Below are positions 2,323 to 56,439 of a DNA stretch of 59,096 nucleotides, piece after piece (position 1 is the stretch's first letter; each line of letters opens with the position of its first letter). Both the position numbers and the translations under genes were made by a program. Source of the stretch: a virus (taxonomy: Duplodnaviria; Caudoviricetes); the IMG/VR virus record IMGVR_UViG_3300017782_000016, positions 1 to 59,096 of that record; one strand, given 5' to 3'. Under the pieces are notes generated by a model, which was given only the letters and a program-made list of their open reading frames with translations, ran no database searches and was not told the DNA's origin.

Positions 2323-3156
2323 ATGGCATACATAAGTTTTAGGGATTTACCAATTTACATAGCGGCTGGCGACAACGCCTTAGCAGAAGGAGAAAGCAGT
2401 TCATTAATGGTTCACGCTAACCAAGGTTCTATTTCATACACTCCTAATGTACAATCAACTAGACTTTTAGGTCAAACACCAGATGCTGGTAAAGATTATT
2501 TAATCGCTGGACCATTTTCTGCGAGTTTATCATTTTCTTTCTTTTTAAAAAATGGTGAATTTATACCTACTGCTCATACTGGTGATAGTAAGCTGTCCTT
2601 TGCGTTTGGAGATAAAGATGGACTAAGGGGTACTAACATGTATTTAAATTCATTTTCTTATACGTTAGCGCCATATGCACCCGTGCAAGTTAATTGTGAG
2701 TTTGGCATATACTCAAAACCAGAAGGGAAAATAGCATCAGTTGGCACTACTAATCTAGGACCACAACCAGGCGCAGCTGCTAGTAGTCAATATGCACACG
2801 GAGCATATTCTACTCTTACTAATCCAGTCGCAGGTACATTAACAGTCGAAAATGCGGCTTATCAATTTACAACAAGTAGACAACCAGTATACGCAATCGG
2901 AGCACTAACTCCAAGTGAAGTTTTACAATTAACTGCAGAACATCAAGTTAGTATAGCGGGAGATAACATTGACGCACTCGTAGGAGTCGGCGGAGTTGAG
3001 GAAGGAGCTGCAGTTTTAGATTTAAAAGCTCCATCTGCTCCCACCGTTACAATTATGAAATCAACTGTCAATGGTATAGTTACTGCACAAACTATGAATG
3101 CAAGTGCTGGAGGAGTAGCTCAAGGCACTACTACTATACAACAATCCTTGTTGTAG
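2323..3156 (+). CDS. Putative minor tail protein, tail-tube-like paralog
   Basis: ANQGSISYTP...LLG / VENAAYQFTTSRQPVYAIG duplication matching the tube-like family. Confidence 0.55.
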   Translation: MAYISFRDLPIYIAAGDNALAEGESSSLMVHANQGSISYTPNVQSTRLLGQTPDAGKDYLIAGPFSASLSFSFFLKNGEFIPTAHTGDSKLSFAFGDKDGLRGTNMYLNSFSYTLAPYAPVQVNCEFGIYSKPEGKIASVGTTNLGPQPGAAASSQYAHGAYSTLTNPVAGTLTVENAAYQFTTSRQPVYAIGALTPSEVLQLTAEHQVSIAGDNIDALVGVGGVEEGAAVLDLKAPSAPTVTIMKSTVNGIVTAQTMNASAGGVAQGTTTIQQSLL

Positions 3157-3158
3157 TG

Positions 3159-3186
3159 TTGAATTTTTACGCAAATCGTTTACTAT
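3159..3186 (+). promoter_or_regulatory. Host sigma70-type promoter, near-leaderless
   Basis: TTGAAT-N16-TACTAT, ATG 5 nt after the -10 box. Confidence 0.55.
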
Positions 3187-3191
3187 AAAAT

Positions 3192-3515
3192 ATGATTAAG
3201 TTTTGTTCCGAGTGTGGTGCGAAGGCTGAATATAAATTCAGTCCTCCTAAATTTTGTTCTAGTTGCGGTACCCCTATGGGTGTTGCTGCAAAAAACGAAT
3301 CTCGTCCATTGGATAGAAATGTAAATGCAAGCAGAAAAATACAAGCCATAGCAGACGACGAAACAGATGCGGAATTTGTACCACAAATAAATAAATTAGA
3401 ATATGAAATAGATACATATGACGATCAATACAATCATACAATCGGCTCTCTTGCAGGGAAAGCTCCTATGTCAAGAAGAAGAGCAACGAGGAAACATATT
3501 GATGATCTTAAGTAA
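3192..3515 (+). CDS. Zinc-ribbon protein
   Basis: FCSECG ... FCSSCG double CxxC at N-terminus. Confidence 0.8.
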   Translation: MIKFCSECGAKAEYKFSPPKFCSSCGTPMGVAAKNESRPLDRNVNASRKIQAIADDETDAEFVPQINKLEYEIDTYDDQYNHTIGSLAGKAPMSRRRATRKHIDDLK

Positions 3516-4187
3516 ATGTATAATTTTGAGGACAAACTCGAACAAATAGAAAGAGCACTAGAAAAAAAACGAAGTAAATGGGATCTAGATGCGGTACCCT
3601 CCGTTGATTACGATGATATAAAACAAATTATCATGACCCACATTTACAAGAAGTGGCATTTGTGGGATCAGACTAAACCGATTGAACCTTGGTTGAGTCG
3701 AGTCGTTGCTAATCAATTTAAAAATTTGTTACGTAATCATTATGGTAATTATGCCAGACCTTGTTTAAGGTGTGAACATAATTTAGGCGGTGACTCGTGC
3801 GGCCTTAATTCAAGCGGTAGGCAGGACAATTCTTGTCAGTTGTATGCAGATTGGGAAAAAAGAAAAAAATCAGCATACGATATAAAACTAGCGGTTACAA
3901 TCGAAAACCACACAAACGAAATCAACCAAAGACAAGATGAATTTATAGATATAGCAGATGCCACAGAAAGAATTTCTGAGCATCTCAAGCCACATTTAAA
4001 TTTAAAGCAGTACATGGCTTTCCGTATGCTTTTTATCGAAAACCACTCTGAGGAAAAGGTCGCTTCGTATTTAGGTTACAAAACCAACGAAAAGAAACGA
4101 TCAGCAGGGTACAAACAAATTAAAAATCTAAAAAAGATTTTTCAAGAGAAAGTCAAAGAAATTTTAGATAACAACGACATACTATGA
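3516..4187 (+). CDS. Phage RNA polymerase sigma70-family factor with Cys-rich insert
   Basis: Region-2-like DYDDIKQII...WLSRVVANQFKNLLR; C-terminal HTH SEEKVASYLG; insert CLRC..C..C. Confidence 0.75.
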   Translation: MYNFEDKLEQIERALEKKRSKWDLDAVPSVDYDDIKQIIMTHIYKKWHLWDQTKPIEPWLSRVVANQFKNLLRNHYGNYARPCLRCEHNLGGDSCGLNSSGRQDNSCQLYADWEKRKKSAYDIKLAVTIENHTNEINQRQDEFIDIADATERISEHLKPHLNLKQYMAFRMLFIENHSEEKVASYLGYKTNEKKRSAGYKQIKNLKKIFQEKVKEILDNNDIL

Positions 4188-5221
4188 CAGACTTAACGCA
4201 AGAACAAAAAGATAGAATCTTGGAGGAGTTCCAAAAGAACCCCAACATAATCGACATTACTAAGATTGTATTTAACGATGACACTTTGGACGGTAGGTCA
4301 AAGGAGGGACGATCTGTGACGAAGTTTCTAGCTTCTAACGGATTGAAGGCTCAGACCACGAAACATGTCAAGGTGGAATCAGTAGAATTAAATGATGAGC
4401 AAAAATCTATCATTGAAGAGCGACATGGAGACGGATGGTCTTCTTTACAGATAGCAAAAGAACTTTTTGGAAACTCAACCAAAAAGTTAAGCAAAGAACA
4501 AAGAACTGTGCATGAGTATACATCATCTATTGAAGAAGAGCCTACAACCAATGAAAGTTTTCACTACGCTGCGCCACACGCTATTTCGAGAATTATTAAA
4601 AAAATTAATGATTCAACGGGATACGGTCTAGAAGAAGGTAAGATGTCTAGGAACCAATTGACATGCTGTGAAAGATTGCGAATAAATTTAAACAACTCAA
4701 GATTCATAGCCATCGTTAATAACTACAACAACCCAAGAGACAGGGAACTTTTTGAACAAGAGTTTATTAGGCTAACATGGGATAAGCCAGATCTAACGGC
4801 AGATGAAATTAACCTATACATGAATGTGGGCAAAGAGATTATTAATTTAGAATTAATTACGTCACACCTACAAAAATTAAATGATATGTTTGAATCAGCG
4901 GACGACCAGGACGAAATGACTGTGCGTTTAGCGGAAATTATTAAAGCTAAGAGTGCTGAGTATCATCAGTGTGAAAGTCGTATAGAAAATTTAACAAAGA
5001 AACTCCAAGGCGATAGAGGTGAAAGGATGAAGAACAAACAAAAAGAAACTGCATCATTTCTATCTATTGTGCAATTGTTTCAAGAAGAAGAAGAGCGCAA
5101 GAACATGGTACACATAGCCGAAATGCAAAAGCAAATCATTAAAGAGGAAGCGAAAAAGATTGAGGGTATGGCCGCTTGGAAAGCTAGAGTTTTGGGGATT
5201 GGTATTAATGATGTCTTATAA
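4184..5221 (+). CDS. Conserved-looking helical/coiled-coil protein, possible terminase small subunit or DNA-binding protein
   Basis: HTH-like WSSLQIAKELFG, long C-terminal coiled coil, two genes upstream of TerL; function is inference. Confidence 0.45.
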   Translation: MTDLTQEQKDRILEEFQKNPNIIDITKIVFNDDTLDGRSKEGRSVTKFLASNGLKAQTTKHVKVESVELNDEQKSIIEERHGDGWSSLQIAKELFGNSTKKLSKEQRTVHEYTSSIEEEPTTNESFHYAAPHAISRIIKKINDSTGYGLEEGKMSRNQLTCCERLRINLNNSRFIAIVNNYNNPRDRELFEQEFIRLTWDKPDLTADEINLYMNVGKEIINLELITSHLQKLNDMFESADDQDEMTVRLAEIIKAKSAEYHQCESRIENLTKKLQGDRGERMKNKQKETASFLSIVQLFQEEEERKNMVHIAEMQKQIIKEEAKKIEGMAAWKARVLGIGINDVL

Positions 5222-6134
5222 ATGTAAAGAGTGCGGAGAAGAGTTTGACTCAGAAAAAGCGTTACATGCACATATAAAAAAGCATGGTTTTTATGTTGCG
5301 GATTATTATGTACAACATTATCCAAGATATAATAAACTAACTGGCGCACCAATACAATTTAAAAACAAAGATCAATACTTCAACACAGACTTTGCAAGAC
5401 GAAGTCAAATGAAGGAATGGTGCAAAACATCTGATCAAGACGAAGTAAAACAATACATACTGAAAGTATTAGCCGAAAGAGTGATTAGAAAAAAATGGGA
5501 ACACACACCCTCTTATGTTGAGCTCTACAAAGCGAAATTGCCAGACATCAGTATATACAAAAAACATTTTGGTTCTTATACCAAGGCGTCACAAGAGATA
5601 GGTTTAGAACCGCTATTTAATCAGCATTTGACGAAGAAATTCTTTGACGACTATAATGAAAAAATATTTATAGATACAAGAGAACAACAACCACTATATT
5701 TCAAAAACAGCGAATCTTTAAAATTAGCTTTCGGTGATTATACATTATCTGGAGATAAATTTACAAATACGTTTGTAGATAGAAAAAGCGCGACAGATTT
5801 TATAGGGACTTTCGGTAACGGATTCAAAAGATTCCAAAGAGAAATGCAGAGATGTGTGGAAGTGGATTGTTATATGTATATTGTTGTAGAAAAAAGCATT
5901 AAGGCAATATATAAAGATTATTTTCCTGGTAAAAGGTTATCAACCTTGAATTGGGCTTTTTCCAACATGGTCAAGCTTCAACATCAGTTTGCTGGAAACT
6001 GTCAATTCATATTTACCGAGAATAGAACGCAGAGCGAAATAATTATACCTAAGTTATTGGCATTGGGTAAAGAGCTTTGGGAAACTGACATGCAATATTA
6101 CATAGAAGAAGAAAATGTCTTGGGAGACAGGTAA
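5208..6134 (+). CDS. C2H2 zinc finger + ERCC4/XPF-type nuclease domain protein
   Basis: YKCKECG...LHAHIKKH; IDTREQQP...GDY...VDRKS..DF ERCC4 motifs; likely start ATG 5208/5211 rather than 5160. Confidence 0.8.
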   Translation: MMSYKCKECGEEFDSEKALHAHIKKHGFYVADYYVQHYPRYNKLTGAPIQFKNKDQYFNTDFARRSQMKEWCKTSDQDEVKQYILKVLAERVIRKKWEHTPSYVELYKAKLPDISIYKKHFGSYTKASQEIGLEPLFNQHLTKKFFDDYNEKIFIDTREQQPLYFKNSESLKLAFGDYTLSGDKFTNTFVDRKSATDFIGTFGNGFKRFQREMQRCVEVDCYMYIVVEKSIKAIYKDYFPGKRLSTLNWAFSNMVKLQHQFAGNCQFIFTENRTQSEIIIPKLLALGKELWETDMQYYIEEENVLGDR

Positions 6135-8021: not shown

Positions 8022-9968
8022 ATGCCAAGAAAATATACAAAAAAATCAGATTATTGGAATAAATTCAACCAACCACAACAAGTTGTTTCAGAGGCTTCGG
8101 TAAACGTAGAGCCTGCTAGTTTAGGAGCAGCTTATCATGTTTCAGAAGCTTCATACGGTCGAGCTGGTGCAGCAAACGCAACAAGTCAAAGATCTAGCGC
8201 TAGAATCAATAGATCCGCAGTAACTCCCGCACTTAATAAATATAGTCAAATTCGAGGTGGATTGTTACCTTTTGAATTAACAACAGATGGTGTTAATGTT
8301 AGGGACGCTATAGAGCTTTGCCAAAAAGCTTATGCCAATGTTCCGATTTTTAGAAATACTATAGATATGATGTCCGAGTTTGCTAATACGGATATATATC
8401 TAGAGGGAGGTAACGAAAGTTCCAGAAACTTCTTTGATAAGTTATTTACGAGAATTAAATTATGGGATTTGAAAGACCAGTATTTCAGAGAGTATTATAG
8501 AAGTGGCAATATCTTTTTATACAGAATAGATGGTAAATTTAATTTAGAAGATTTTAAAAAGTTCTCTAGAAGTGTCACGGAAGAGCCTGGAGAGAACAAA
8601 TTTCCACTAAAGTATATTGTTTTAAATCCGTTTGAGATTGTAGCAAAACGAAGCACTGTGTTTAATACCTCTGACGGAGCTTATGCTAAAATACTTTCTG
8701 AGTTTGATTTAGAAAGATTAGCAAACCCTAAAAATGACTATGATCAAGCTATATATGATGCATTAGATCCAGAAGTCAAAAAGCAAATTAAAGATGGAGC
8801 ATATTTTAAGGATGGATTAAAAATTAATCTAAAGAACGACAGATTGGCATATTCCTTCTATAAAAAACAAGATTATGAGCCATTTGCTATACCTTTTGGA
8901 TTTCCAGTATTAGAAGATATTAATGCTAAAATGGAAATGAAGAAGATGGACCAAGCAATCATGAGAACCGTAGAAAATGTGATACTTATGATTACAATGG
9001 GTACTGAACCCGAAAAAGGTGGTATCAATCATCACAATGTCAAAGCAATGCAATCTCTGTTTGCAAATGAATCAGTAGGTCGTGTATTAGTATCTGATTA
9101 TACTACAAAAGCTGATTTCATTATTCCAGATATCAATAAGGTTGTTGGCCCAGGTAAATACGAAGTAATTAACAAAGATATCAAGGAAGGTCTTCAAAAC
9201 ATCATACTTAATGAAGATAAGTACAATGGTGCACAAATCAAAGCTAGAGTTTTCTTGGATAGATTAAAAGAAGCTAGAGAAGCTTTCATTAACGATTTTC
9301 TACAACCAGAAATAAGAAGGGTGGCAAAAGATTTAGGTTTTAGATCTTACCCAACAGTTAAATTTAAAGATATAGATTTAAGGGACGAAGTACAACTGAT
9401 GAGAGTGGCAACTAGACTTATGGAGCTAGGCATTCTTACAGCTGAACAAGGTATGGATATTATTCATACAGGTCGATTCCCAGAATCACAAGAATTAGAA
9501 CAAGCGCAAGATAAGTTTGTTGAACAGCGTAAGAAAGGGCATTACAACCCGATTGTTGGTGGTATACCGATGATAGAAGACGATGCAATTGACGCTCCTA
9601 AACAGAATGTACCTGGAGTTCCAGGACGACCTGTAACAAAACCACAAAACAGAATATCAAGAGAAGCAATACAAGCTACAGTGTATGAAATTGAAGCTTT
9701 GCACTCTTTAGCATCAGAAGAAATGTTAAAGAAAATTAACAAGAAAAAGCTTAATAAAAACCAAACTTCAATGATCAATAAATTGTGCGAATCTGTTGTG
9801 TGTAGCACTGCAAAAGAAAATTGGACAAATTTAGCTATTTCTTGTGTAAATGATTTTACTAACATTGAGAAACTAAGCATTTTAAACGAAGTTTATGATG
9901 TTTCAGATTCACACCAATTAGAAATTTATCCATCAGCAATTTTATACCATTCAAATGAACAAAAATAA
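8022..9968 (+). CDS. Portal protein
   Basis: Position after TerL; size; YANVPIFRNTIDMM, YYRSGNIFLY, PFAIPFGFPVL portal-like segments. Confidence 0.85.
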   Translation: MPRKYTKKSDYWNKFNQPQQVVSEASVNVEPASLGAAYHVSEASYGRAGAANATSQRSSARINRSAVTPALNKYSQIRGGLLPFELTTDGVNVRDAIELCQKAYANVPIFRNTIDMMSEFANTDIYLEGGNESSRNFFDKLFTRIKLWDLKDQYFREYYRSGNIFLYRIDGKFNLEDFKKFSRSVTEEPGENKFPLKYIVLNPFEIVAKRSTVFNTSDGAYAKILSEFDLERLANPKNDYDQAIYDALDPEVKKQIKDGAYFKDGLKINLKNDRLAYSFYKKQDYEPFAIPFGFPVLEDINAKMEMKKMDQAIMRTVENVILMITMGTEPEKGGINHHNVKAMQSLFANESVGRVLVSDYTTKADFIIPDINKVVGPGKYEVINKDIKEGLQNIILNEDKYNGAQIKARVFLDRLKEAREAFINDFLQPEIRRVAKDLGFRSYPTVKFKDIDLRDEVQLMRVATRLMELGILTAEQGMDIIHTGRFPESQELEQAQDKFVEQRKKGHYNPIVGGIPMIEDDAIDAPKQNVPGVPGRPVTKPQNRISREAIQATVYEIEALHSLASEEMLKKINKKKLNKNQTSMINKLCESVVCSTAKENWTNLAISCVNDFTNIEKLSILNEVYDVSDSHQLEIYPSAILYHSNEQK

Positions 9969-10710
9969 AAACGAACTAATCGCAAATATTGACCGTAAAA
10001 ATGGCAATATAGAAATAGCTCTCGCCAACAAATATAGCGAAGCAGAAGCACCAGTGCGTGAAACTTTCCTAGCTGCGTGTGCTATGAAAGATACATACGC
10101 TGTAGACACATCCACAATGGATGACGAACAAACGGTCTCATCATGTGCATCAGCATACGACAATTCAGTTAGACCAATGATAGCAAAAATTCAAGCTAAT
10201 GTAGAAACTTTCTTAGCAAGCTTAGATAAACCACTTATGGCAATCGAAGATTATGCGAAAGCAATCGAAAATTACGCTATTGAAGATTATGCGCAAGAAA
10301 CATTTCTAGCTAATCAAGAAACCTTTTTGGCAAACCAAGAAACTTTCTTAGCAAACCAGGAAACATTTTTAGCTCGATTCCAACCGCTAATGGCTAAATT
10401 TACAAATTCATTTATGGCTGGACTAACTGATCGTCAGAAAAAGAATTTACCTCCAGCTTTACGCAAGGCAATTGTTAAGAAGATGGAATCAGAAGGAAAA
10501 ATCACCCCAGAAGAATCAAAAGCTATGGATCCTTTACTTGCTAATATGGAAACATTCTTAGCAAAAGAAAGAGCTAAAGCTCAAGAAACTTTTTTAGCAA
10601 ACGACCCTCTTTTAGCAGAAGATCAAGATATGTTATCTAAAGATGATGTTAAAAAAGATGTAGTTGCACCTCAAGACGATATCAAAGTTATAGAAAAACC
10701 TAAAAGTTAA
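9955..10710 (+). CDS. Repeat-rich head-module protein (ETFLA cassettes), putative prohead core/internal polyprotein
   Basis: Between portal and protease; eight ETFLA, three IE(D/N)YA and several P(L/M)(M/L/I)A units. Confidence 0.6.
   Translation: MNKNKNELIANIDRKNGNIEIALANKYSEAEAPVRETFLAACAMKDTYAVDTSTMDDEQTVSSCASAYDNSVRPMIAKIQANVETFLASLDKPLMAIEDYAKAIENYAIEDYAQETFLANQETFLANQETFLANQETFLARFQPLMAKFTNSFMAGLTDRQKKNLPPALRKAIVKKMESEGKITPEESKAMDPLLANMETFLAKERAKAQETFLANDPLLAEDQDMLSKDDVKKDVVAPQDDIKVIEKPKS
10294..10374 (+). repeat. Four tandem 21-bp units encoding QETFLA(N)
   Basis: caagaaacatttctagctaat/caagaaacctttttggcaaac/caagaaactttcttagcaaac/caggaaacatttttagct; differences are synonymous. Confidence 0.95.
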
Positions 10711-12272
10711 TGTCAAAATACAACTACACAGCTAGTTTTGATTTTGAAATTACTGCTGGTACTAAAATTGCTGACTTTAATTTATCGGAAGCTAACCTTC
10801 AAAATCTAGAATCTTTAATACCTAAACAAGTCGATCTGAAAAGAAATTCTGACTTGTTAGGTGTTGCGTTCAATGCTGCAGTGGTTAACGAGTTTAACAA
10901 AAATGGAGATGGAATGTGCACAAAAACCGCGATTGATTGTGTGCAACAATTTGTTCATAAGCCAACTAACATCGAACATAATAAAAAGAAAATAGTTGGT
11001 CATATAGTTAATGCTGGATTTAGTGATTATTCCGATAGCACTATTCTAGTTAACGTCGATGAGGATGAAAAGGATCCATTCAATATAGCTCTAGGAGCTG
11101 TGGTTTATAAAACCGTTGATAAGGACTTCTTTGATACGATAAGCAGAAGTGCTCAAAAAGCAAGTAATTTACATAAGGCTGTTTCTGCTAGTTGGGAAGT
11201 TGGGTTTAGTGATTATCAAATTGCTGTAGGAAGTAAAAACCTAAGAGATGCTGAAATCATTACTGATAAGGCGCAAATAGCCAAGATAAAACCTATGCTA
11301 AAAGGCTTTGGTGGCAAAGGAAGATTGGACGATGGAACACCAATTTTCCGTTTAATTTGTGGTACTGTATATCCACTTGGTATTGGTTATACGATGAAAC
11401 CAGCCGCTAATGTAAAAGGTGTAATTGCTGATGAAGAAGGGCTTGAAAATATCGTAAAAGAAAAAGAACAAAAAACAGAAGCAGAGAAAGTAATAGAAAT
11501 AAATACAAAACAAAGCGAACAACTAGAAAAAGTTGCAGCGAAAATTTCACAAAGTTTAAAAAATACTGTAAACAATAACAAAATTATGGACTTAGAAAAC
11601 CTATTAACAGAACTCAAGAGCGATCTTCAAGAGAAGAAATTTTCTCAAGAAGCTATTGCAGGCATGACATCAACATTTGCTGATGCCATTAAAACCAAAG
11701 ATGAAGAGTACAAAGCTTCTCTTGAGACTGCAGAAAATGAGAAGGCGGAAATCGCATCTGCGAATGAAGAACTCAAGAATTCTGTAGAATCAATTAAAGA
11801 GGAACTAGCTACTGCTCAAGAACGCATTGCTGAGTTTGAAAAAGCGCAAGCTGCTGTAGCGGCAGAAGCTACTTTCAATGCTCGCATGGAAGAAATTGAT
11901 TCTATCTACGATTTAGAAGAAAGTGATGCAACTTTCATTGCTGAAAAAATTAAAGGACTTGATTCATCAGAAGAGGCATATGCTTCTTTCAAATCAGAAC
12001 TTGAAGTATTTTGGTCATCTAAAAACAAAGAAGCTAAAGCTAAGATCGAGCAAGAAATTAAAGCTCGTGTCGAAGAAGAAGTTTCTGCTAGATTGAAAAA
12101 TGAGGATTACTATGCTGTAGAGGCTTCAGAAGATGTCAAAGTAGAAGATGCTTTAGACAGCGCAGAAGCAACAACAACAGAAATTCCAAACAATAACGAA
12201 GCTCAAGCTTCATCAACAACTTTAAAAGATAGATTCGCCGCTGCTTTCAGCCGTGAAAATATCACATCATAA
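10710..12272 (+). CDS. Prohead maturation protease fused to C-terminal scaffold
   Basis: NKNGD, KPTNIEH...IVGHI, VSASWEV protease-like motifs; acidic coiled-coil C-terminal half; upstream of capsid genes. Confidence 0.8.
   Translation: MSKYNYTASFDFEITAGTKIADFNLSEANLQNLESLIPKQVDLKRNSDLLGVAFNAAVVNEFNKNGDGMCTKTAIDCVQQFVHKPTNIEHNKKKIVGHIVNAGFSDYSDSTILVNVDEDEKDPFNIALGAVVYKTVDKDFFDTISRSAQKASNLHKAVSASWEVGFSDYQIAVGSKNLRDAEIITDKAQIAKIKPMLKGFGGKGRLDDGTPIFRLICGTVYPLGIGYTMKPAANVKGVIADEEGLENIVKEKEQKTEAEKVIEINTKQSEQLEKVAAKISQSLKNTVNNNKIMDLENLLTELKSDLQEKKFSQEAIAGMTSTFADAIKTKDEEYKASLETAENEKAEIASANEELKNSVESIKEELATAQERIAEFEKAQAAVAAEATFNARMEEIDSIYDLEESDATFIAEKIKGLDSSEEAYASFKSELEVFWSSKNKEAKAKIEQEIKARVEEEVSARLKNEDYYAVEASEDVKVEDALDSAEATTTEIPNNNEAQASSTTLKDRFAAAFSRENITS
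11543..11572 (+). promoter_or_regulatory. Internal bipartite promoter AATTTCACA-N13-ACTGTAAA
   Basis: Same two boxes and spacing as upstream of major tail gene (16826-16855, minus strand); in-frame ATG at 11586. Confidence 0.7.
11586..12272 (+). CDS. Nested in-frame scaffold protein (MDLENLLTELK...)
   Basis: In-frame ATG directly after the internal promoter motif, at the boundary of the coiled-coil region; analogous to lambda Nu3 inside C. Confidence 0.6.
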   Translation: MDLENLLTELKSDLQEKKFSQEAIAGMTSTFADAIKTKDEEYKASLETAENEKAEIASANEELKNSVESIKEELATAQERIAEFEKAQAAVAAEATFNARMEEIDSIYDLEESDATFIAEKIKGLDSSEEAYASFKSELEVFWSSKNKEAKAKIEQEIKARVEEEVSARLKNEDYYAVEASEDVKVEDALDSAEATTTEIPNNNEAQASSTTLKDRFAAAFSRENITS

Positions 12273-46763: not shown

Positions 46764-47759
46764 ATGGAGTTAGATTTTACAAAGAAAATTTTAGAGATGT
46801 TCGCGAGTCGCCCTGGACCTAAGAGCGGTGCACAAACACCTTCTAAGCCAGAAGAGCGAAAAAAGGGATCTTCTAAAAACGAACCTGGTTCGGCAGGCAC
46901 ATCTCCAAACTCCAAAGAAAAATCGAAAAAAATCCTAAAGAGACAGGACGATAAGACATTAATAAAAGAATCACAAGCTAAAATTACTTTTAGTGAAAAA
47001 GTCACAAACTCTTTAAAGAAAAAAGTAAAAGAGCACAACGAAAAACACTCCAGAAAAGTGACTCTGGGTATGCTTAAAAAAGTTTATCGAAGAGGGGCTG
47101 GCGCTTTTTCGGGTTCTCATAGACCTGGGCAGTCACGTGCGTCTTGGGCTATGGCTCGCGTTAACACCTTCCTTAGAATGATGAGAGGTGGAAAAGTCAA
47201 AGATTCTTACAGAAAAGCCGATTCAGATATTGCTCGAGCATCTGATGAGGCGATTGCAAGTTTGCCAGATAACTTTGATGTTTGGTCGCCTTCTGATTTC
47301 GATGCACAAAGAGACACTACAAAGATAGAATGGTCACTAGCTCGCATCGACTTATTAGCTTCTGGTTCAACATTGGACGAGATTCTAGAATCAGATTTTT
47401 GTTTCGATGAGGAAGTAGCAGAAGCAAAAGAAAAAAAAACCCTAAATAAACCGTTTAGATTAAAAGACGGCAAAAAGAAATTTGGCGTATACGTCAAAAA
47501 TGACAAAGGTAATGTTGTTATGGTAAAATTTGGCGACCCAAATATGGAAATCAAAAGAGATGATCCAGAGCGTCGCAAGTCTTTCAGAGCTCGCCACAAA
47601 TGTGACACAAACCCAGGCCCCAAATATAAAGCGAGATATTGGTCTTGTAGACAATGGCAATCTGGTAAAAAGGTAGAAGCAGAACTTGAGTCTAACGCTA
47701 GTTTATTAGATATAGACCCAAATTTAGTTTATGCAGAAATAGTTGAAGATATGGATTGA
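46764..47759 (+). CDS. Modular basic protein with MELDFT tag (DUF5824-like and DUF6321-like modules)
   Basis: LKKVYRRGAGAF..SHRPG..WAMARVN and LNKPFR..KKFGVYVK..VKFGD..SFRARHKC..ARYWSC segments recognised from memory. Confidence 0.65.
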   Translation: MELDFTKKILEMFASRPGPKSGAQTPSKPEERKKGSSKNEPGSAGTSPNSKEKSKKILKRQDDKTLIKESQAKITFSEKVTNSLKKKVKEHNEKHSRKVTLGMLKKVYRRGAGAFSGSHRPGQSRASWAMARVNTFLRMMRGGKVKDSYRKADSDIARASDEAIASLPDNFDVWSPSDFDAQRDTTKIEWSLARIDLLASGSTLDEILESDFCFDEEVAEAKEKKTLNKPFRLKDGKKKFGVYVKNDKGNVVMVKFGDPNMEIKRDDPERRKSFRARHKCDTNPGPKYKARYWSCRQWQSGKKVEAELESNASLLDIDPNLVYAEIVEDMD

Positions 47760-47786: not shown

Positions 47787-48677
47787 ATGATGAAAGTTTT
47801 ATTTGTATCTGATTTTGCTAGTGATAAACCAGGAGGAGCTCAATTAAGTAATCGTAAGATTATTGAAAAAGGTCGTGATTTGGGTTTTGATATTACTGAA
47901 TTAAACATAAACTCAAGCAGATTACCATTATCTTTTCAATATGATGTTGTTATAACTTCTAATTTTGATTGGTTTTTAAAAGAACCAGACATTAATTTTA
48001 TTTTTGATAAGATTACAGAACACTCGTGTCACGTTAGATACGAACACGATTCCTGCACTTATTTCGCTCCACAAATAAGAAAAAAATTTATGGAATCGGT
48101 CAAATTAAATCTTTTTCTATCTGATTTCCATTTACAGTTTTTTCAAAATGATTACGGTGATTTATATCACAACAATGCTATCATTTACGATCCGATAGAC
48201 ACAAAGATATTTAAAACTAAAGATGTAGAAAAAGAGTATGATTACATCTACTGTGGTTATGTACATCCCTTAAAAGGTTTTTTAAACTATGCCAGATTGG
48301 TAGAACAAAATCCAGATAAAAAGTTTTGTTTAATAGGTTGGAGCGATGATAGTTCCCACGATCATTTTAGACACCACAATTTTAATTTACAAAAATTTCT
48401 AGAAAACAATAAGAATTTAACTTTGTTGAATTATCAGACACAAGAAAAGGTAGCTGAATATTTTCAAAAAAGTAAAAAGATATTTCACAAACCAATGGTC
48501 AACGAGCCTTTTTGCAGAATGGTTGCTGAAGCACTTTTGTGTGGTTGTGAATTTGAAGGTAATAAAAATACAATCGGTAGCTATTTAGAATACAATAAAC
48601 ATGGCGCAGAGGCTTTTAAAGAAGGATGTAAAAACGCTGCAGATTTATTTTGGGCGCAAATTAAGGAAAATCTATGA
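47787..48677 (+). CDS. GT-B (GT4-like) glycosyltransferase
   Basis: GGAQ N-terminal loop; HPLKG; EPFCRMVAEALLCG. Confidence 0.85.
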   Translation: MMKVLFVSDFASDKPGGAQLSNRKIIEKGRDLGFDITELNINSSRLPLSFQYDVVITSNFDWFLKEPDINFIFDKITEHSCHVRYEHDSCTYFAPQIRKKFMESVKLNLFLSDFHLQFFQNDYGDLYHNNAIIYDPIDTKIFKTKDVEKEYDYIYCGYVHPLKGFLNYARLVEQNPDKKFCLIGWSDDSSHDHFRHHNFNLQKFLENNKNLTLLNYQTQEKVAEYFQKSKKIFHKPMVNEPFCRMVAEALLCGCEFEGNKNTIGSYLEYNKHGAEAFKEGCKNAADLFWAQIKENL

Positions 48678-49360
48678 AGATATCTATAATCTGTTCTGTA
48701 TACAACGCCTCAAAATATTTAATAAATTATTTAAATATGGCAAACGATCAACTTTTAAAAGAATTTGAAATTATTTTTGTTGACGCCAACTCTACAGATA
48801 ATTCTTTAGATTTAATTGAGTCTTTTAAATTTAGAAACGGTATTGAGGTTAAAATACTTCCGCAAAAAGAAAGGGTTACAATATACGATGCTTGGAATAT
48901 AGCTATTAAAGAATCAACTTGCCACTATGTTATGAATTGGAATACGGATGATTTACTATTTCCAAATGCATTACTCACCTATCAGAATTACATTAAATCT
49001 TTTCCAGACGTTGATGTATTTTATAGTCCCTGTGGCATAGTAAATAAGCATTCTTTCGATGCGTACACAGGAATTAGTAACTGGCCTCAATATAGTCACG
49101 ATACGCTACTACAATTATGTATATGTGGGCCATTCCCACTACTAAGAAAGTCTGCAGTAGAAGCTTGTGGATATTTTAACCCAAAATATATTTCTTCTGG
49201 AGATTACGAAATGTGGCTAAAGCTTTCTAAAAATAAATACACATTTAAAAAAATACCAGATATCATAGGTTCTTTTTTATACAGAGCTGATTCCACATCA
49301 AATCAAAAAATTAAAGAAGCACAAAAAGAAGATTTAGAGATACAAGAATTATACCGATGA
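48674..49360 (+). CDS. GT2 glycosyltransferase
   Basis: ISIICSVYN, EIIFVDANSTD, NTDD, GDYEMWL. Confidence 0.92.
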   Translation: MKISIICSVYNASKYLINYLNMANDQLLKEFEIIFVDANSTDNSLDLIESFKFRNGIEVKILPQKERVTIYDAWNIAIKESTCHYVMNWNTDDLLFPNALLTYQNYIKSFPDVDVFYSPCGIVNKHSFDAYTGISNWPQYSHDTLLQLCICGPFPLLRKSAVEACGYFNPKYISSGDYEMWLKLSKNKYTFKKIPDIIGSFLYRADSTSNQKIKEAQKEDLEIQELYR

Positions 49361-50040
49361 AAAAAATAATATCATTTAGTTTGTGGGGAGACAACCCAAG
49401 ATATACTTTAGGAGCTATTAGAAATTGTGAGTTAGCATTAAAAATTTATCCAGATTGGATTTGTCGATTTCATGTTGGGTTAAGTACACCCAAAGATATC
49501 ATAGATTGTTTAGATGATTTTCCAAATTCAGAAATCCTTATGAAAGAAGATGAAGGAAATTGGACAGGTATGTTTTGGAGATTCGAAGATGCATCAGACC
49601 CAACTGTAGATGTCATGATATCTAGAGATTGTGACAGTAGATTAACATTAAGAGAAAAAAATGCAGTAGATGAATGGTTGAATAGTGGTGAATATTTTCA
49701 CATTATGAGGGACAATATAGCCCACGCTACACAAATTCTTGGAGGTATGTGGGGCGTAAGAGATGGATTTTTAAAAAACATTCATAATATGATAGAAGAA
49801 TATTCGAAAGGTAATTTTTGGCAGGTGGATCAAAACTTTCTTAGAGAAAAAATATATCCAATAGTTAAAGATAATTGTTATGTTCATACTGAATTAGTAA
49901 AAATGATGGGAGAAAACTCTTTTTCTTTTAGTGATGAAAGAGATCCACAACACTTTATAGGTCAAGCTTATGATGGTAATGACAAAATATTAGACCAAGA
50001 TGATTATTTTATAGATAGATTATATGAAAGTACACACTAA
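49357..50040 (+). CDS. Putative GT-A glycosyltransferase (KKIISFSLWG family)
   Basis: MFWRF, ISRDCDSRL (DxD), ILGGMWG, DQNFL; cluster context. Confidence 0.6.
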   Translation: MKKIISFSLWGDNPRYTLGAIRNCELALKIYPDWICRFHVGLSTPKDIIDCLDDFPNSEILMKEDEGNWTGMFWRFEDASDPTVDVMISRDCDSRLTLREKNAVDEWLNSGEYFHIMRDNIAHATQILGGMWGVRDGFLKNIHNMIEEYSKGNFWQVDQNFLREKIYPIVKDNCYVHTELVKMMGENSFSFSDERDPQHFIGQAYDGNDKILDQDDYFIDRLYESTH

Positions 50041-50851
50041 CACAATATTCAAAAACGAAGCAGTTTTATTAAAAGAAGTTTTACCTATATGGGAAAAATA
50101 TCCAGTAGATAAGTTTGTCTTTTATGATGATAACTCTACGGACGAAAGTGTAGATATAATCAAAGAAATACTTGAAGATAGGTGTGTTATACTGAATAAT
50201 AATCTAAAGGATTTCCACGAATCACATCACCGATCTACTATTTTAGAATATAGTAGAGAAAATAATGCAACACACGTAGTTTCAATAGACTGTGATGAGC
50301 TTTTATCTACTAATCTTCTACAGAATTTTAATGAAATTGTTTCTACGTGTGATAAATATAACCTACATTTATATCAATACAATGTAGTTAACGGTCTAGA
50401 TTTTTATAGACAAGATCCAGCTTACGAAAACAATTATAGGAATTTTATTATATCACTGAAAAAAACCCATAAGTTTGACACCAGTCAATCTAAATTTCAC
50501 ACACCCAGAATACCAAAAGTTAATTTAGTGCCAGTAATGTTAAAAGATGCTGGCTTCATACATCTACAAGCCATCAATAGAAAATTTTACGCCCTAAAAC
50601 AATTATGGTATAAACATTACGAATACAGAAATTATGATCACACAATCGGCCAAATTAATCAAAGATATGACCCAGTGGTCAATGGTTTAAATTTTAAACC
50701 AGTTACAACACCAAAAAATATTATTGACGGTATAAAATTTGACATTTCAATTTATGATAGTTTAGAGGAAATGAAAGGTTACAAGAAATACATCTTAGAA
50801 AAACCAGTAGATGAACTTATTACATTTGGCAAAGCTTATTTAGAACTATGA
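50024..50851 (+). CDS. GT2-like glycosyltransferase
   Basis: FKNEA, YDDNSTDES, IDCDE. Confidence 0.8.
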   Translation: MKVHTNTIFKNEAVLLKEVLPIWEKYPVDKFVFYDDNSTDESVDIIKEILEDRCVILNNNLKDFHESHHRSTILEYSRENNATHVVSIDCDELLSTNLLQNFNEIVSTCDKYNLHLYQYNVVNGLDFYRQDPAYENNYRNFIISLKKTHKFDTSQSKFHTPRIPKVNLVPVMLKDAGFIHLQAINRKFYALKQLWYKHYEYRNYDHTIGQINQRYDPVVNGLNFKPVTTPKNIIDGIKFDISIYDSLEEMKGYKKYILEKPVDELITFGKAYLEL

Positions 50852-51543
50852 ATTTAAATATATACCATCATCTAGGTTTAGGCGATCATTTTGATTGTAA
50901 CGGCATGGTACGACACTATGCTTCTAATTTTGACTATGACTCAATTGGCGTTTTTGCAAAGTCTAATTATTATGAAATGGTCAAGTATATGTATAGAGAT
51001 GATGAAAGAATTAATGTAATTAAGGTTGATAAAAACAATGAACAAGGTGGTGTACAAAAATATTTACTAGAAAATACAGGCCATCATTTTTTAAAGGTTG
51101 GTCACGAACATTACAAAAACCAAGAAAATAAAAATTGTTGGGAAATATTTTACGAACAAGTGGACTTACCATTAGAAACTAGATATGAAAAATTCCATGT
51201 AGAAAGAGATAAGGAGGCAGAAGATTTACTTTATCAAGAACTTACCAACAACGAACCATATATTTTTGTTCACGATGATCCATCTCGTGGTTTTACTTTA
51301 GATAGATCTCATATAGAAAACAAAGATATTAGAATTATTGAAAATGATGTATCTAAAAATATTTTTTATTTTATAAAAATTATAGAAAACGCAGAAGAAA
51401 TACATTGTATGGAAAGCTCTTTTAAAACATTAATAGATATTTATGCTAAACAAGAAAAATTATTTTTTCATAACTTTAGGAACCACCCACTTGGGACTCA
51501 AAGCAACAAAAATTGGAAAACAGTAAATTATGAAACAAAATAA
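50848..51543 (+). CDS. Putative GT-B glycosyltransferase-like protein
   Basis: HHLGLGD N-terminal loop; IIENAEEIHCMESSF; cluster context. Confidence 0.55.
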   Translation: MNLNIYHHLGLGDHFDCNGMVRHYASNFDYDSIGVFAKSNYYEMVKYMYRDDERINVIKVDKNNEQGGVQKYLLENTGHHFLKVGHEHYKNQENKNCWEIFYEQVDLPLETRYEKFHVERDKEAEDLLYQELTNNEPYIFVHDDPSRGFTLDRSHIENKDIRIIENDVSKNIFYFIKIIENAEEIHCMESSFKTLIDIYAKQEKLFFHNFRNHPLGTQSNKNWKTVNYETK

Positions 51544-52162
51544 ACCATGGTCTTTAACAGAAGTGGCTAACGCTCATAAGTATTTTTCGGAATCTGATCA
51601 AAATGATCCAGTGCATCATCACGATATTTTTGCTGGTTTTTTAAAAACCAAAAAGAATCCTAAAGTTTTAGACATAGGATGTGGAAATTCTAGAGTCTTA
51701 AATAGTATTTCACATTATTCTAAATACCTTGGCGTAGATTTGTGCGAAGATTTAATTACATCTTGTAATAAAAGATTTAAAGATAATACTGAGGTGAGTT
51801 TTTTAGCAATGGATATAGAATCTGATGACTGGCCAAAAGAAATAAAAGAATATAATGTAGCGTATTTAGATAGCACTTTTACAATGATGGAAAATCCAGA
51901 TTTATTATTTAAAAGGTTAATAAAAACTTTTGAAACTATTTTTTTTAATAGAACTCGCATTTATCGAAATTATGATAATATTGAAATGATAAAAACAAAT
52001 CATCGTTGGGCGGGTATGAAAGAAATGTCCCCATTATGGAAGTTTGGGCCACAATATTTTATAAATTTTTGTGATTCTTACGGAGGCGGGTGTGCAGCTT
52101 ACGCAGAAGATATTGTGATTTACGAACAAAACAAAAAATTTGAGCGATTTTTAAAGGTATGA
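51530..52162 (+). CDS. Class I SAM-dependent methyltransferase
   Basis: VLDIGCGN, YLGVD. Confidence 0.88.
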   Translation: MKQNKPWSLTEVANAHKYFSESDQNDPVHHHDIFAGFLKTKKNPKVLDIGCGNSRVLNSISHYSKYLGVDLCEDLITSCNKRFKDNTEVSFLAMDIESDDWPKEIKEYNVAYLDSTFTMMENPDLLFKRLIKTFETIFFNRTRIYRNYDNIEMIKTNHRWAGMKEMSPLWKFGPQYFINFCDSYGGGCAAYAEDIVIYEQNKKFERFLKV

Positions 52163-53016
52163 GTAATTTAAAATTTATTAACTATAACTGGTATGGAACA
52201 ATCGCTGATCATTGTGTGGATTTTACAGAGCAAGAATACATTGATTGTGGGGTAACTAAATTACATAATAAAAATTTAATCCCAGAAAATGTAAAAGAAA
52301 ACGATATTATCTTTGTTAAGGTAGATTATATATATAATGGCCTTTTTCAAAGTGAGTTTTTACCCAGAATATCCAATAAATTTTACTTAATCACAGCAAA
52401 CTCTTCTTACGATGTTACCAAAGGAGCAAACATCACAAGTATTATTTCTAATAAATTTTTACAAAAATGGTATTGTACAAACGCCCCACAAGATTTAAGC
52501 GATAAAATAGTCCCTATACCAATCGGATTCGAGGAAAAAGAAAGGTTTGGTGGTGATCAAGACATAATAGATAAATGCTTTAAAAATAAAAAACCATATA
52601 GCGAAAAAAAAGATAAGATACTTCTGCCATATCATAATGTTTCAACAAACTCAGAAAGAGCTGCTAATGTAAAATATTTATCTTCTCTACATCACGTCGA
52701 TGTACAAACAGAAAAACTACCTTTTGAAGATTACCTTAATTTACTAAATGAATACAAGTATGTTATTTGTTTAGAGGGTGCTGGTCAAGATTTACATAGA
52801 TTTTATGAAACCTTACTAGTTGGTTCAGTGCCGATAGGTATTAAAAACTCTATTGAATTTTTATTTAAATACTGGGATTTACCTGGACATTTTGTGCGTA
52901 AATGGTATATTGATCAAATGTGGGTTGACATATTTAAAAAAGAACATACATTTAAAAATGTAGAAAATTTTCTTACAATAGAACATCACACAAAAAATAT
53001 TAAAAATGAAAGTTGA
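52159..53016 (+). CDS. Exostosin (GT47)-like glycosyltransferase
   Basis: YKYVICLEGAGQDLHRFYETLLVGSVPI matches the F.L.P.G...T.R..EAL..G.VP pattern. Confidence 0.65.
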   Translation: MSNLKFINYNWYGTIADHCVDFTEQEYIDCGVTKLHNKNLIPENVKENDIIFVKVDYIYNGLFQSEFLPRISNKFYLITANSSYDVTKGANITSIISNKFLQKWYCTNAPQDLSDKIVPIPIGFEEKERFGGDQDIIDKCFKNKKPYSEKKDKILLPYHNVSTNSERAANVKYLSSLHHVDVQTEKLPFEDYLNLLNEYKYVICLEGAGQDLHRFYETLLVGSVPIGIKNSIEFLFKYWDLPGHFVRKWYIDQMWVDIFKKEHTFKNVENFLTIEHHTKNIKNES

Positions 53017-53401
53017 AGTAGCAATAGGAGAAATATTTGACAAGATTACAATCTTGGATATTAAACTAAAAAGAATTACAGATCAAGCTAGACTAGATTT
53101 TGTTAGAACTGAAAGAGTGGCATTAGCAGACGCTTTATTTGAAGAGGGTGTCGTTATGCAAGACGAGTTATACGCAGAACTAAAAAGCATCAATACTAAA
53201 ATATGGGACACCGAAGCTGGTTTTAGAGAAAAGGAAGCCAAAAAAGAATTTGATGATGAGTTTATAGAATTTGCTAGATTAAATGCAAAATACAACGATG
53301 AAAGATTTGTAGTAAAAAATAAAATAAACACACACTACGAATCTAAAATTAGAGAACAAAAATCTTACGACGCCTTATATGAATCCGATAATTCAAATTG
53401 A
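53006..53401 (+). CDS. DUF6165-like protein
   Basis: GEIFDKITILDIK...IWDTE...NDERF..KNKIN...EQKSY. Confidence 0.75.
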   Translation: MKVEVAIGEIFDKITILDIKLKRITDQARLDFVRTERVALADALFEEGVVMQDELYAELKSINTKIWDTEAGFREKEAKKEFDDEFIEFARLNAKYNDERFVVKNKINTHYESKIREQKSYDALYESDNSN

Positions 53402-54473
53402 ACCTTGGATTGACAATAGTGAATTGATACAACTCAAAAAGGTTATCAAATCAACTTTTGTTTCTGAGCATAAATTAAACCAAGAGTTTGAAGATAAAAT
53501 TAAGAAAATTACTGGTTCAAAATATGCAGTTTCTATGACGAATGGAACTGCCGCAACTTTTTGCGCTTTAAAAGCTTTAGGTATTGGTAAAGGTGACGAA
53601 GTTATTGTTCCAAACATGACATTCATTGCTTCATCTAACGCTGTAATTTTTGCTGGCGCTACGCCCGTTTTATGTGACATAGAAGAAGATACGATGTGTA
53701 TGTGTCCTAAAGATCTTGCAAAAAGAATCACATCTAAAACTAAAGCTATAATGCCTGTACATCTGTACGGAAGAAGCTGTAACATGACTGAACTACGTAA
53801 GATAGCGGCCGCTAAAAAAATTAAAATTATCGAGGATGCTGCTCAAGGTATGGGAGTTCTTTATAGAGGTCAACACGTTGGAACATTTGGTCACGCTGGT
53901 ATTCTTTCTTTTTATGCAAACAAAACAATTACATGTGGAGAAGGTGGCGTTGTATTAGCCCCCAACAAAAGAGTCATAGAAGATTGTTACAAGATGAAAA
54001 ACCACGGTAGAGCAAAAAAGGGTGTATTTGTACACGAATCTATAGGTTTTAATTTTTCTTTTACCGAAATGCAAGCCGCTGTTGGCGTATCACAACTAAA
54101 CAAACTCAAAAGAGTTATAGCAAAAAAACAAAAGATTTATAATTTTTACAAAAAACATATTGATAACGAATACCTTATAGATATACCAATTAATAAAGAC
54201 ACAACACCAGTTCACTGGTTTAGTTCTTACTATACAGACCATAAAAAAAGCTTTATCAAACATATGAAAGACCACAACATACAAACTAGAGAGTTTTTCT
54301 ATCCATTGAATTTACAACCCTGTTACAAAAAAAGTAATCTAATTAAAATTAAGGATGATATGCCAGTAAGTAAAAAAGTTTTTGATCGTGGAATATCCTT
54401 ACCTTCTGCTTATAATATCTCTACCAATCAATTAAAATATGTTTGCGACACTATTAATAAATTTAAACCATGA
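53379..54473 (+). CDS. DegT/DnrJ/EryC1/StrS aminotransferase, GDP-perosamine synthase-like
   Basis: NGTAA, MPVHLYG, IEDAAQ, SFYANKTITCGEGG (catalytic Lys present). Confidence 0.88.
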   Translation: MNPIIQIEPWIDNSELIQLKKVIKSTFVSEHKLNQEFEDKIKKITGSKYAVSMTNGTAATFCALKALGIGKGDEVIVPNMTFIASSNAVIFAGATPVLCDIEEDTMCMCPKDLAKRITSKTKAIMPVHLYGRSCNMTELRKIAAAKKIKIIEDAAQGMGVLYRGQHVGTFGHAGILSFYANKTITCGEGGVVLAPNKRVIEDCYKMKNHGRAKKGVFVHESIGFNFSFTEMQAAVGVSQLNKLKRVIAKKQKIYNFYKKHIDNEYLIDIPINKDTTPVHWFSSYYTDHKKSFIKHMKDHNIQTREFFYPLNLQPCYKKSNLIKIKDDMPVSKKVFDRGISLPSAYNISTNQLKYVCDTINKFKP

Positions 54474-55624
54474 TTAAATTAGTTAAAGATACAATATCCA
54501 AAGATGAAATAAATAGCTTAATTAACTGGCTAGAGACCGACCCTAGATTAACTAAGGGCGATCTTACCGTTCAATACGAAAAACAGTGGTCTCAAAAAAT
54601 AGGTTGTAAACACTCTGTGTTTGTAAACTCTGGCTCGTCTGCTATTTTAATTTCCCTATATGCTTTAATTGCAAACGGTACACTTAAAAAGGGAGATAGT
54701 GTTATAGTTCCAGCTCTTGCTTGGGCTACGGATTTATCTCCAGTTGTTCAATTAGGATTAAAACCTATTTTGTGTGATTGTAATATGGAGAATTTATCAG
54801 TAGATCCGCACTACTTAAGATCTATTGTGTCAAACCATAAACCTAAAGCTTTAATATTAGTTTCAGTGCTAGGTTTAGTTCCAGATATGGATTTTATAGT
54901 TAATTTTTGTGAAGATAACGATATAGTTCTTATTGAAGATGCTTGCGAATCTTTGGGCTCTCAATATAAAGGTAAAAATTTAGGTAATTTTGGTTTGCTA
55001 TCTTGCTTTTCTACTTACTATGGGCATCACATTTCTACTATTGAAGGAGGCATGGTTTGCACTAATGACGATGAACTTTATAATTTATTAAAATCTTTAA
55101 GAAGCCATGGTTGGGACAGAGACATGGACCCAGAGTATTCTAAAGAGCTAAAAGAAACATTTAATATCAATGATGATTTTGATTCTTTATATAAATTTTA
55201 TTACTTTGGATTTAATCTTAGGTCTACAGATTTACAAGCTTTTATTGGTATCAATCAATTAGATAGGCTGTCAGATATTATTAGTAAAAGGAACTCTAAT
55301 TATAATCTATATCGTGATTTATTATCCGATTACCAGTGGCAACCACCAGCATCAACAGATGAAAATTACATATCTAATTTTGCGTACCCTATTATACATC
55401 CAAATAGAAACGAAATTATCAACAAGTTAAAGAAACAAAACATAGAATCAAGACCTTTAATTTGTGGGTCTATGGGTAAACAACCTTTTTGGATTAAAAA
55501 CTTTGGCTCTATTAGACTTCCTCACGCTGATCACATAAATGATTTTGGTTTGTACTTGCCCAATAATCATCAACTAGAAGAAGAAGAGATTAACCTCATA
55601 GCTGAAACAATTAAAGATATATGA
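54470..55624 (+). CDS. PLP-dependent 3-dehydratase, ColD/RfbH-like
   Basis: VNSGSSA, EDACES, STYYGHHISTIEGG (His in place of Lys), RSHGW. Confidence 0.82.
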   Translation: MIKLVKDTISKDEINSLINWLETDPRLTKGDLTVQYEKQWSQKIGCKHSVFVNSGSSAILISLYALIANGTLKKGDSVIVPALAWATDLSPVVQLGLKPILCDCNMENLSVDPHYLRSIVSNHKPKALILVSVLGLVPDMDFIVNFCEDNDIVLIEDACESLGSQYKGKNLGNFGLLSCFSTYYGHHISTIEGGMVCTNDDELYNLLKSLRSHGWDRDMDPEYSKELKETFNINDDFDSLYKFYYFGFNLRSTDLQAFIGINQLDRLSDIISKRNSNYNLYRDLLSDYQWQPPASTDENYISNFAYPIIHPNRNEIINKLKKQNIESRPLICGSMGKQPFWIKNFGSIRLPHADHINDFGLYLPNNHQLEEEEINLIAETIKDI

Positions 55625-56433: not shown

Positions 56434-56439
56434 TTAAAG

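Follow-up and report, generated by a model that had tools for sequence, protein, structure and literature searches.

A 59,096-nucleotide stretch of viral DNA, comprising a whole IMG/VR virus record (IMGVR_UViG_3300017782_000016, completeness estimate 37%) and called the window here, was analysed for a head-module gene that encodes a protein of 251 amino acids (aa) with eight copies of the pentapeptide ETFLA. These copies are under purifying selection as peptides. Relative to a family of about 150 aa, the protein is enlarged by two insertions, one of about 62 and one of about 35 residues. The reading that we tentatively favour, at somewhat less than an even chance, sees it as an accessory protein of the prohead core or interior, with multivalent contact or spacer elements on its flexible segments.

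The eight copies of ETFLA begin at residues 36, 84, 115, 122, 129, 136, 199 and 211 of the protein. Residues 114-141 consist of four tandem Q-E-T-F-L-A-(N/R) units, reported by Tandem Repeats Finder at 10294-10373 with a period of 21, 3.8 copies and 78% matches. The seven-residue periodicity holds for this tandem part alone (four 21-nucleotide units); the four remaining copies follow spacings of 48, 31, 63 and 12 residues and lie outside the heptad register. In a six-frame scan of the 59-kb window, 8 of 8 ETFLA matches fell inside the open reading frame (ORF) 9955..10710 and no ETFLA-like pattern was found in the other window proteins. The same ORF contains three copies of IE(D/N)YA and five of P[LM][LMI]A, the latter with four further six-frame matches in stop-containing frames. 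An original prediction, made from the DNA alone, had listed eight ETFLA copies with four in tandem, three of IE(D/N)YA and five of PLMA/PLLA/PMIA, and the ORF translation and the scans agree with each of these counts. When the protein was shuffled 200,000 times, the highest count of any 5-mer was five and never eight.

The eight 15-nucleotide ETFLA cores differ from each other by 2.5 nucleotides on average (range 0-5), and all differences are synonymous. Codons alternate between ACT, ACA and ACC, between TTC and TTT, between TTA, CTA and TTG, and between GCA and GCT, with the residue constant throughout. The differences among the cores require a minimum of six synonymous changes and no non-synonymous one, while only 10 of 45 possible single changes are synonymous (P ~1e-4). 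Because the core copies differ at synonymous sites only, the ETFLA peptide, not its DNA, is under purifying selection, as originally proposed. The absence of a signal peptide, also stated originally, agrees with an inspection by eye, in which the N terminus showed no hydrophobic stretch.

A word-indexed search gave 16 true relatives of the 251-aa protein. One of them, P0001, is 96% identical and keeps all eight ETFLA copies; the other 15 measure 144-162 aa and have no ETFLA. The family was extended with an exhaustive profile search (86 representatives, E <= 0.001) and a scan of viral contigs, in which 110 loci were found and 80 kept for analysis (L001-L080). Most relatives in the viral contigs are 118-157 aa long and repeat-free, and ETFLA occurred in 0 of the 80. 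A protein-seeded scan of metagenome contigs yielded no further ETFLA-bearing relatives, and a degenerate DNA pattern for two tandem units matched no viral contig and one metagenome contig, which encodes an unrelated protein. The 90% cluster of P0001 also holds P0107 (124 aa), in which copy 2 reads V-Q-T-F-L-A and which ends early inside the tandem array (Q-E-T-F-L-A-N-Q-Q-P-F); this early end could stem from a frameshift or from faulty assembly of the repeat.

The core of the family runs from the N domain through a linker to a basic helix module, and a variable acidic or mixed tail follows. In the basic module G156, L157, Q161, K162, K163, L165, P166, I173 and G181 are invariant. The first insertion of the window protein is missing in relatives and the second is missing from relatives with the same tail. 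The protein had first been described as made of short Ala-terminated cassettes, a description that had to be abandoned: the repeats form two lineage-specific insertions in a folded family that is mostly repeat-free. That its units end in Ala is one parse among others of an Ala-rich protein (Ala is the commonest residue, 35 of 251, and hydrophobic-x-Ala is found 18 times where 9.1 are expected). The first ETFLA copy is part of helix 1 of the N domain, where all other family members read E/K-K/S-F-M-G/S, and according to the alignments helix 1 and the inserted copies carry the identical five residues in the window lineage. Relative L001 reads V-E-K-M-L-A and V-E-K-L-L-E where the window protein has V-E-T-F-L-A.

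At both insertion places relatives carry a different element, A-(N/S/G)-L-F, with x-Q and P-M-L/F-A/G frequently coming after it. L008, L015 and P0002 have one copy each and the twelve rows of one clade two to three; L001 has five, L007 six, P0025 six (repeat unit A-N-L-F-Q-S-Q-P-M-L-G) and P0024 seven. As with ETFLA, the A-N/S/G-L-F copies of L007, L001, L013 and L020 differ at synonymous sites. The linker itself (E-A-N-L-F ... M-L-A-G-L), directly before the basic module, is the single ancestral unit, and PLMA/PLLA of the window protein is the counterpart of its second half. Absence of the repeats from close relatives had been named beforehand as an outcome that would speak against the original prediction, and it was found in part, because ETFLA is missing from all 80 viral-contig relatives and 37 of 56 aligned members of the family are without any linker or tail element; on the other hand, P0001 keeps all eight copies and others carry analogous arrays.

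The N-domain tree (FastTree; 62 rows and few columns) divides into groups of 21 and 41 rows, each with a local support of 99. A linker or tail element is present in 21 of 21 rows of the one N-domain type and in 0 of 41 of the other. Within the group of 21, the high-copy rows (the window with P0001, L001, L007, P0024 and P0025) are unresolved and differ from one another in the type of unit that they carry. On a portal tree of 63 rows, 14 of which have the element-bearing form, the gene form changes at least seven times, compared with a mean of 12.8 and a minimum of 9 in 300 shuffles. These repeated switches on the portal tree suggest that gene forms swap between lineages, the two forms being exchanged whole between related phages.

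The AlphaFold2 model of the 251-aa protein has a mean predicted local distance difference test score (pLDDT) of 75.2 and a predicted template modelling score (pTM) of 0.37. The pLDDT is 75-93 over residues 11-80, in the N domain, and falls below 50 in the tail from residue 235. Long helices were modelled at residues 57-106, 111-152, 167-179 and 185-215, the second of which holds the tandem segment (pLDDT 67-80). The tandem part has a low hydrophobic moment of 0.22-0.44, where residues 83-110 reach 1.2-1.3, because Gln separates Phe from Leu on the face of the helix. The arrays of relatives contain Pro and Gly (P0025, P0003-type tails). A tblastn search with the 251-aa protein against 50,697 phage records returned no known-family match, nor did an ESM Atlas search with relative P0020 lead to a known family (best score 0.83).

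The prohead-core or internal accessory reading was reached because of the slot of the gene, its overlap with both neighbours, the charged composition of the protein and its fast evolution. The 5' end of the gene overlaps the 3' end of the portal ORF by 14 nucleotides and its stop shares bases with the next start codon (TAATG). The protein would be produced alongside the portal and the scaffold-like protein and would sit in the prohead interior. The N domain with its two invariant Cys and the basic helix module form the family anchor, with two flexible segments between and after them which, in one gene form, carry short hydrophobic Phe-containing elements. In the window lineage, E-T-F-L-A as found in its own helix 1 was copied to seven extra places. 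The copies would act as multivalent, individually weak contact or spacer elements, with other copies of the protein, its own N domain, the scaffold or the shell as candidate partners, and would raise the valency and the length of the protein inside the assembling head. Later, the protein would either be degraded like T4 gp67/gp68 or be retained in the capsid. The identity of the inserted copies with helix 1 appears compatible with self-association, as does the perfect link between element and N-domain type; linkage within one gene would explain each of them equally well. For the first option of the original prediction, a prohead-core protein shredded by the adjacent protease, the slot equivalent to T4 genes 67/68 is in favour, but profile and fold searches for that protease were non-significant.

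A number of observations weigh against the favoured reading. No family, fold or sequence search linked the protein to a known head protein: Foldseek against BFVD gave no match at E <= 0.001, a wide VIA-align search reached a best Z of 6.5 with generic helices only, Pfam and PHROGs gave no match, and hhalign of the family alignment returned probabilities of 0.2% against gp68 and 0.1% against gp67. Gene position is what points to a place in the prohead or virion, and the neighbours are called as portal, protease and capsid on weak or positional grounds. A partner conserved in all relatives predicts conserved elements, yet 37 of 56 members lack them. No column of a neighbour protein cleanly tracks the presence of the element, a comparison that has no power with its four to five independent contrasts. 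Finally, the FLANQxx heptad is also found in unrelated small membrane proteins, which fits an intrinsic structural repeat no less than a contact motif.

Alternatively, the units could be cutting sites of the prohead protease, in which case the linker and tail would be shredded to peptides of 5-12 residues that leave the head, by cuts after Glu (A-x-E type) or after Ala (hydrophobic-x-Ala). T4 gp67/gp68, in the equivalent slot, are described in a section of PMC9958956 as degraded to small peptides, and SPN3US gp245, in a section of PMC10052503, as cutting after A-X-E. In the 251-aa protein A-x-E occurs six times (3.2 expected), five of them immediately before a DYA/NYA or TFLA unit, and hydrophobic-x-Ala 18 times (9.1 expected). 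The 520-aa protein encoded downstream also has the Peptidase_S77 and S80 clusters of the ESM Atlas as its nearest named ones (0.92 and 0.91), a lead only, as the tool flags such matches as often due to chance. Against this, the protease identity of the 520-aa neighbour is unproven, ETFLA occurs in no other window protein and is therefore not a site common to the putative capsid and scaffold, P0025-type units are entirely without Glu or Asp, and N-Q-E, a match to neither A-x-E nor L/I-x-E, stands before three of the four tandem units. We regard shredding as unlikely. An explanation as structural heptads, in which the QETFLAN units would be a helical, coiled-coil-type extension that lengthens the rod from the N domain to the basic module and their conservation would reflect packing and not partner binding or cleavage, is quite unlikely as well. 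It would account for a period of exactly seven residues repeated four times, for the single modelled helix of residues 111-152 and for P0017 and L084, whose four to five FLANQxx heptads run on into ordinary heptads; it accords poorly with the low hydrophobic moment of the tandem part, with the other four ETFLA copies being out of heptad register and with the Pro/Gly-containing arrays of relatives, which cannot form continuous helices. The array could further be a tolerated, functionless low-complexity expansion, arisen by slippage or duplication in a dispensable linker, as the 37 element-free members among 56 and a copy number ranging from 0 to 8 would allow. This is improbable given old copies that differ only synonymously, their spread over two separate segments and a 96%-identical homologue that is equal in copy number and sequence.

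Two forms of host-directed mimicry, both very improbable in our view, were also weighed. In the one, the protein would be packaged and ejected with the DNA, and its arrays would capture a host hub such as the beta sliding clamp; in the other, a large group of uncultured marine phages would have in this gene a dimorphic 'cargo' slot, one form of which would bring motif arrays into the cell with the DNA for multivalent capture of such a hub, with ETFLA as a re-targeted variant of A-N-L-F. The clamp would be the most concrete candidate, one that a lineage with DnaE and no clamp of its own would have to obtain from its host. The units Q-A-N-L-F and Q-A-D-L-F of P0024, and A-S-L-F and A-G-L-F elsewhere, resemble the Q-L-x-L-F motif given in a part of PMC4549789, and five of the eight window copies read Q-E-T-F-L. 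A DnaE-type polymerase was found in three of four related virus records (64-87% complete), and a DnaN or gp45-type clamp (PF00712, PF02916), PolA and PolB in none of the four. The sporadic, fast-changing distribution of the element would also fit a host-directed function. However, most units of L001, L007, P0025 and the three-copy clade lack Gln at position 1, the resemblance to the clamp motif spans three to four residues, and the C termini of the phage DnaE proteins have no clamp-type motif. The second option of the original prediction, a precursor from which many identical peptides of 6-7 residues would be released, packaged and injected as signals, effectors or defence inhibitors, found nothing in its favour beyond the fact that the peptide is strictly conserved. 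The gene shows no leader-core architecture and has no modifying enzyme or dedicated peptidase nearby, the repeats are insertions in a folded family mostly without them, and the variant P0107 has Q-T-F-L-A in copy 2; such a precursor is hardly credible.

Table 1. Features of the head module in the window, with the evidence for each.
Feature	Position	Strand	Basis
Putative portal protein, 648 aa	8022..9968	+	phrog_16240 E 0.008, tblastn E 3e-4, both weak
Head-module gene, 251-aa protein	9955..10710	+	ORF call
Conserved N domain, residues 1-82: beta-hairpin and two helices, invariant C42 and C64	9955..10200	+	Alignments, AlphaFold2
Insertion 1, about residues 83-144: ETFLA copies 2-6, IE(D/N)YA x3, PLMA; predicted helical	10201..10386	+	Alignment
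Tandem array, 21-nucleotide units, QETFLA(N/R) x4	10294..10373	+	Tandem Repeats Finder, codons
Basic helix module, about residues 155-183, G-L-T-x-x-Q-K-K-N-L-P-x-x-L-x-K-A-I-V-K-K-M	10417..10503	+	Invariant columns
Insertion 2, about residues 192-226: DPLLA - METFLA - KERAKA - QETFLA - NDPLLA	10528..10632	+	Alignment
Acidic/basic tail, common to relatives such as P0015 and P0016	10633..10707	+	Alignment; low-confidence model
520-aa protein, scaffold-like, with candidate prohead protease N-terminal domain	10710..12272	+	Alignments, fold searches
Putative major capsid protein, 389 aa	13000..14169	+	Position and conservation only

The positions of the gene, its segments and its neighbours are given in Table 1. 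The large terminase of the window (phrog_2, E 6e-25) precedes the putative portal gene, whose tblastn match is the annotated portal of Bacillus phage Stahl (E 3e-4). In related viral contigs the gene order is terminase, portal, 251-aa-family gene, 520-aa, 228-aa and 389-aa genes. The portal gene lies upstream of the family gene in 80 of 80 loci and the 520-aa gene downstream in 76, the remaining four loci ending at the family gene. Across these loci the neighbours are 65-93% identical to their window counterparts and the 251-aa gene 34-58%. In one sub-lineage, L058-L061, a distance of about 1.4 kb separates the portal (2661-4601) from the family gene (6001), and inside this slot L059 contains at 1957-2439 a product with 46% identity to the 228-aa protein, an inserted paralogue.

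The 520-aa, 228-aa and 389-aa proteins had no match in Pfam, PHROGs or the 50,697 phage records, and a profile of the 389-aa protein had none among PDB sequences; 'capsid protein' is a positional label for the latter product. Its first 75 or so residues are near-invariant in all relatives and include two L-A-E triplets (T4-type L-x-E) as well as L-S-N-L-F-T-T, a stretch similar to the A-N-L-F element of the small protein. The 520-aa protein consists of an alpha/beta N-terminal part with invariant His83, His90, His98, Ser159 and Ser161 and a C-terminal half that forms a long coiled coil of the scaffold type. No protease match was obtained for it in Pfam and PHROGs at E up to 10, and a PF04586 search of the window was negative. 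Hhalign against T4 gp21, HK97 gp4 and the gp21 family alignment gave probabilities of 0.2-0.4%, and a profile search of PDB sequences gave coiled-coil rows only (E >= 0.31). With the full-length protein, Foldseek against PDB found no match at E <= 0.001 and VIA-align no significant protease match, the coiled-coil half having filled the fold searches. In the best hhalign alignments, which were non-significant, the first motif conserved in the 520-aa protein pairs with that of T4 gp21 and of HK97 gp4; in one, also non-significant, S-A-S-W-E-V-G-F-S falls on the gp21 region ending at the invariant Ser140. The 520-aa protein is a candidate protease-scaffold fusion, likely but unproven. The location of the 251-aa gene between portal and prohead protease, as first proposed, is shown only in part: the portal side has weak matches, and the protease side was not confirmed by profile or fold searches.

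The basic module of relative P0024 matches PF10925 (DUF2680) with 28.2 bits at a cut-off of 25. In P0066, P0067, P0069, P0087, P0096, P0097, P0099 and P0102 a module reading L-T-x-x-Q-K-K-L-P-x-x-L-Q-K-A-I occurs two to three times with acidic linkers between, and the basic L-T-x-x-Q-K-K module, which is also found singly, behaves as an independent mini-module in otherwise unrelated metagenomic proteins. In P0033, P0039, P0041, P0046 and P0095 the part of the family from helix 1 to the basic module is fused to other small marine-phage modules, including DUF5824, which the window also encodes in a separate gene (46764-47759). The tail of the family is a swap site. Nine loci (L008, L015, L023, L031, L040, L041, L050, L062 and L070) have a C-terminal helical add-on of 45 aa ending in R-I-R-D-M-L, and six (L044, L047, L049, L051, L063 and L069) a His/Tyr-rich one of about 35 aa (H-M-M-Y-D-P-K-T-G-K ... 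G-Y-T-H-E) that resembles weak DUF3721 matches in the fused proteins P0033 and P0046.

Elsewhere, the window encodes a tape-measure-like protein of 2085 aa, a ribonucleotide reductase, a single-stranded DNA-binding protein (SSB) and a RecA-like protein. A region at 47787-57564 contains glycosyltransferases, a methyltransferase, two DegT-type aminotransferases, an epimerase and a GDP-mannose 4,6-dehydratase, a sugar-nucleotide pathway carried by the phage. The ORF at 5160-6134 overlaps the start of the large terminase, and its product combines a C2H2 zinc finger with an HNH-associated repeat and an ERCC4 nuclease domain. In the related records, the DnaE-type (Pol III alpha) polymerases of 852-858 aa are located at G001:C1:19579-20394, G002:C1:42038-42853 and G003:C1:68462-69277 (L085-L087). 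The head genes of the window phage are very divergent, and the 50,697 phage records contained no cultured member of its lineage.

How proteins are sorted into the prohead and held together inside it is presented, in a section of PMC9958956, as unresolved even for T4. The family offers a natural series for this question, in which one small protein of the head slot carries 0, 1, 3, 5, 6, 7 or 8 copies of a selected peptide in abundant uncultured marine phages. Multivalent short-motif contacts in head assembly could be tested with peptides (QETFLANQETFLAN and A-N-L-F-type) and a five-gene expression cassette, as could, alternatively, motif-based host capture by a packaged protein. The slot between portal and scaffold, in addition, appears to evolve by swaps of whole gene forms between lineages.

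Compared with known systems, the basic module of the family is alike to DUF2680 (PF10925, YckD-like) in its L-T-x-x-Q-K-K-x-L-P-x-x-L-x-K-A-I pattern, by way of the P0024 match, although the window protein itself has no Pfam match. To our knowledge, no function is known for DUF2680. Four to five tandem FLANQxx heptads, with a unit identical to that of the window protein, are present in P0017 (141 aa) and in L084 (734-1081); these are unrelated proteins with a transmembrane segment before the heptads and neither an N domain nor a basic module. Proteins with known beta-clamp motifs have one or two of them, usually in a terminal position. These motifs resemble the family elements in being short, in lying in flexible regions and in having two hydrophobic residues, Phe among them, after a small or polar one. 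The weak beta-clamp-binding consensus, given as Q-L-x-L-F with hydrophobic residues at positions 4 and 5 in a part of PMC4549789, differs from most family units, which are without Gln at position 1.

Short peptide elements in putative head proteins also recall the capsid targeting sequence of T4 and the propeptides of the SPN3US/phiKZ type. In T4, a section of PMC9958956 relates, this sequence places internal proteins in the prohead core and is removed by the prohead protease, and in SPN3US, following a section of PMC10052503, gp245 cuts after A-X-E and propeptides are cleaved at several sites. The T4 and SPN3US signal is a single N-terminal leader, whereas the window element occurs in up to eight internal copies, and unlike for those propeptides, no cleavage motif common to the window protein and the other head proteins of the window was found. 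Homology to T4 gp67/gp68 was ruled out by the hhalign probabilities of 0.1-0.2%. The window phage is not T4-like, its putative capsid protein falling outside every PHROG, Pfam family and phage record searched, and gp67 and gp68, unlike the 251-aa protein, lack a repeated peptide, a Cys-bearing N domain and a DUF2680-like module. In the T4 gene order 20-67-68-21-22-23, genes 67 and 68 stand between portal gene 20 and protease gene 21, and their products are core proteins present in about 340 (gp67) and 240 (gp68) copies that the protease degrades to small peptides, as set out in a section of PMC9958956. What the 251-aa protein has in common with them is that it is small and charged, with acidic/basic low-complexity parts, and is encoded between the putative portal and the putative protease/scaffold genes.

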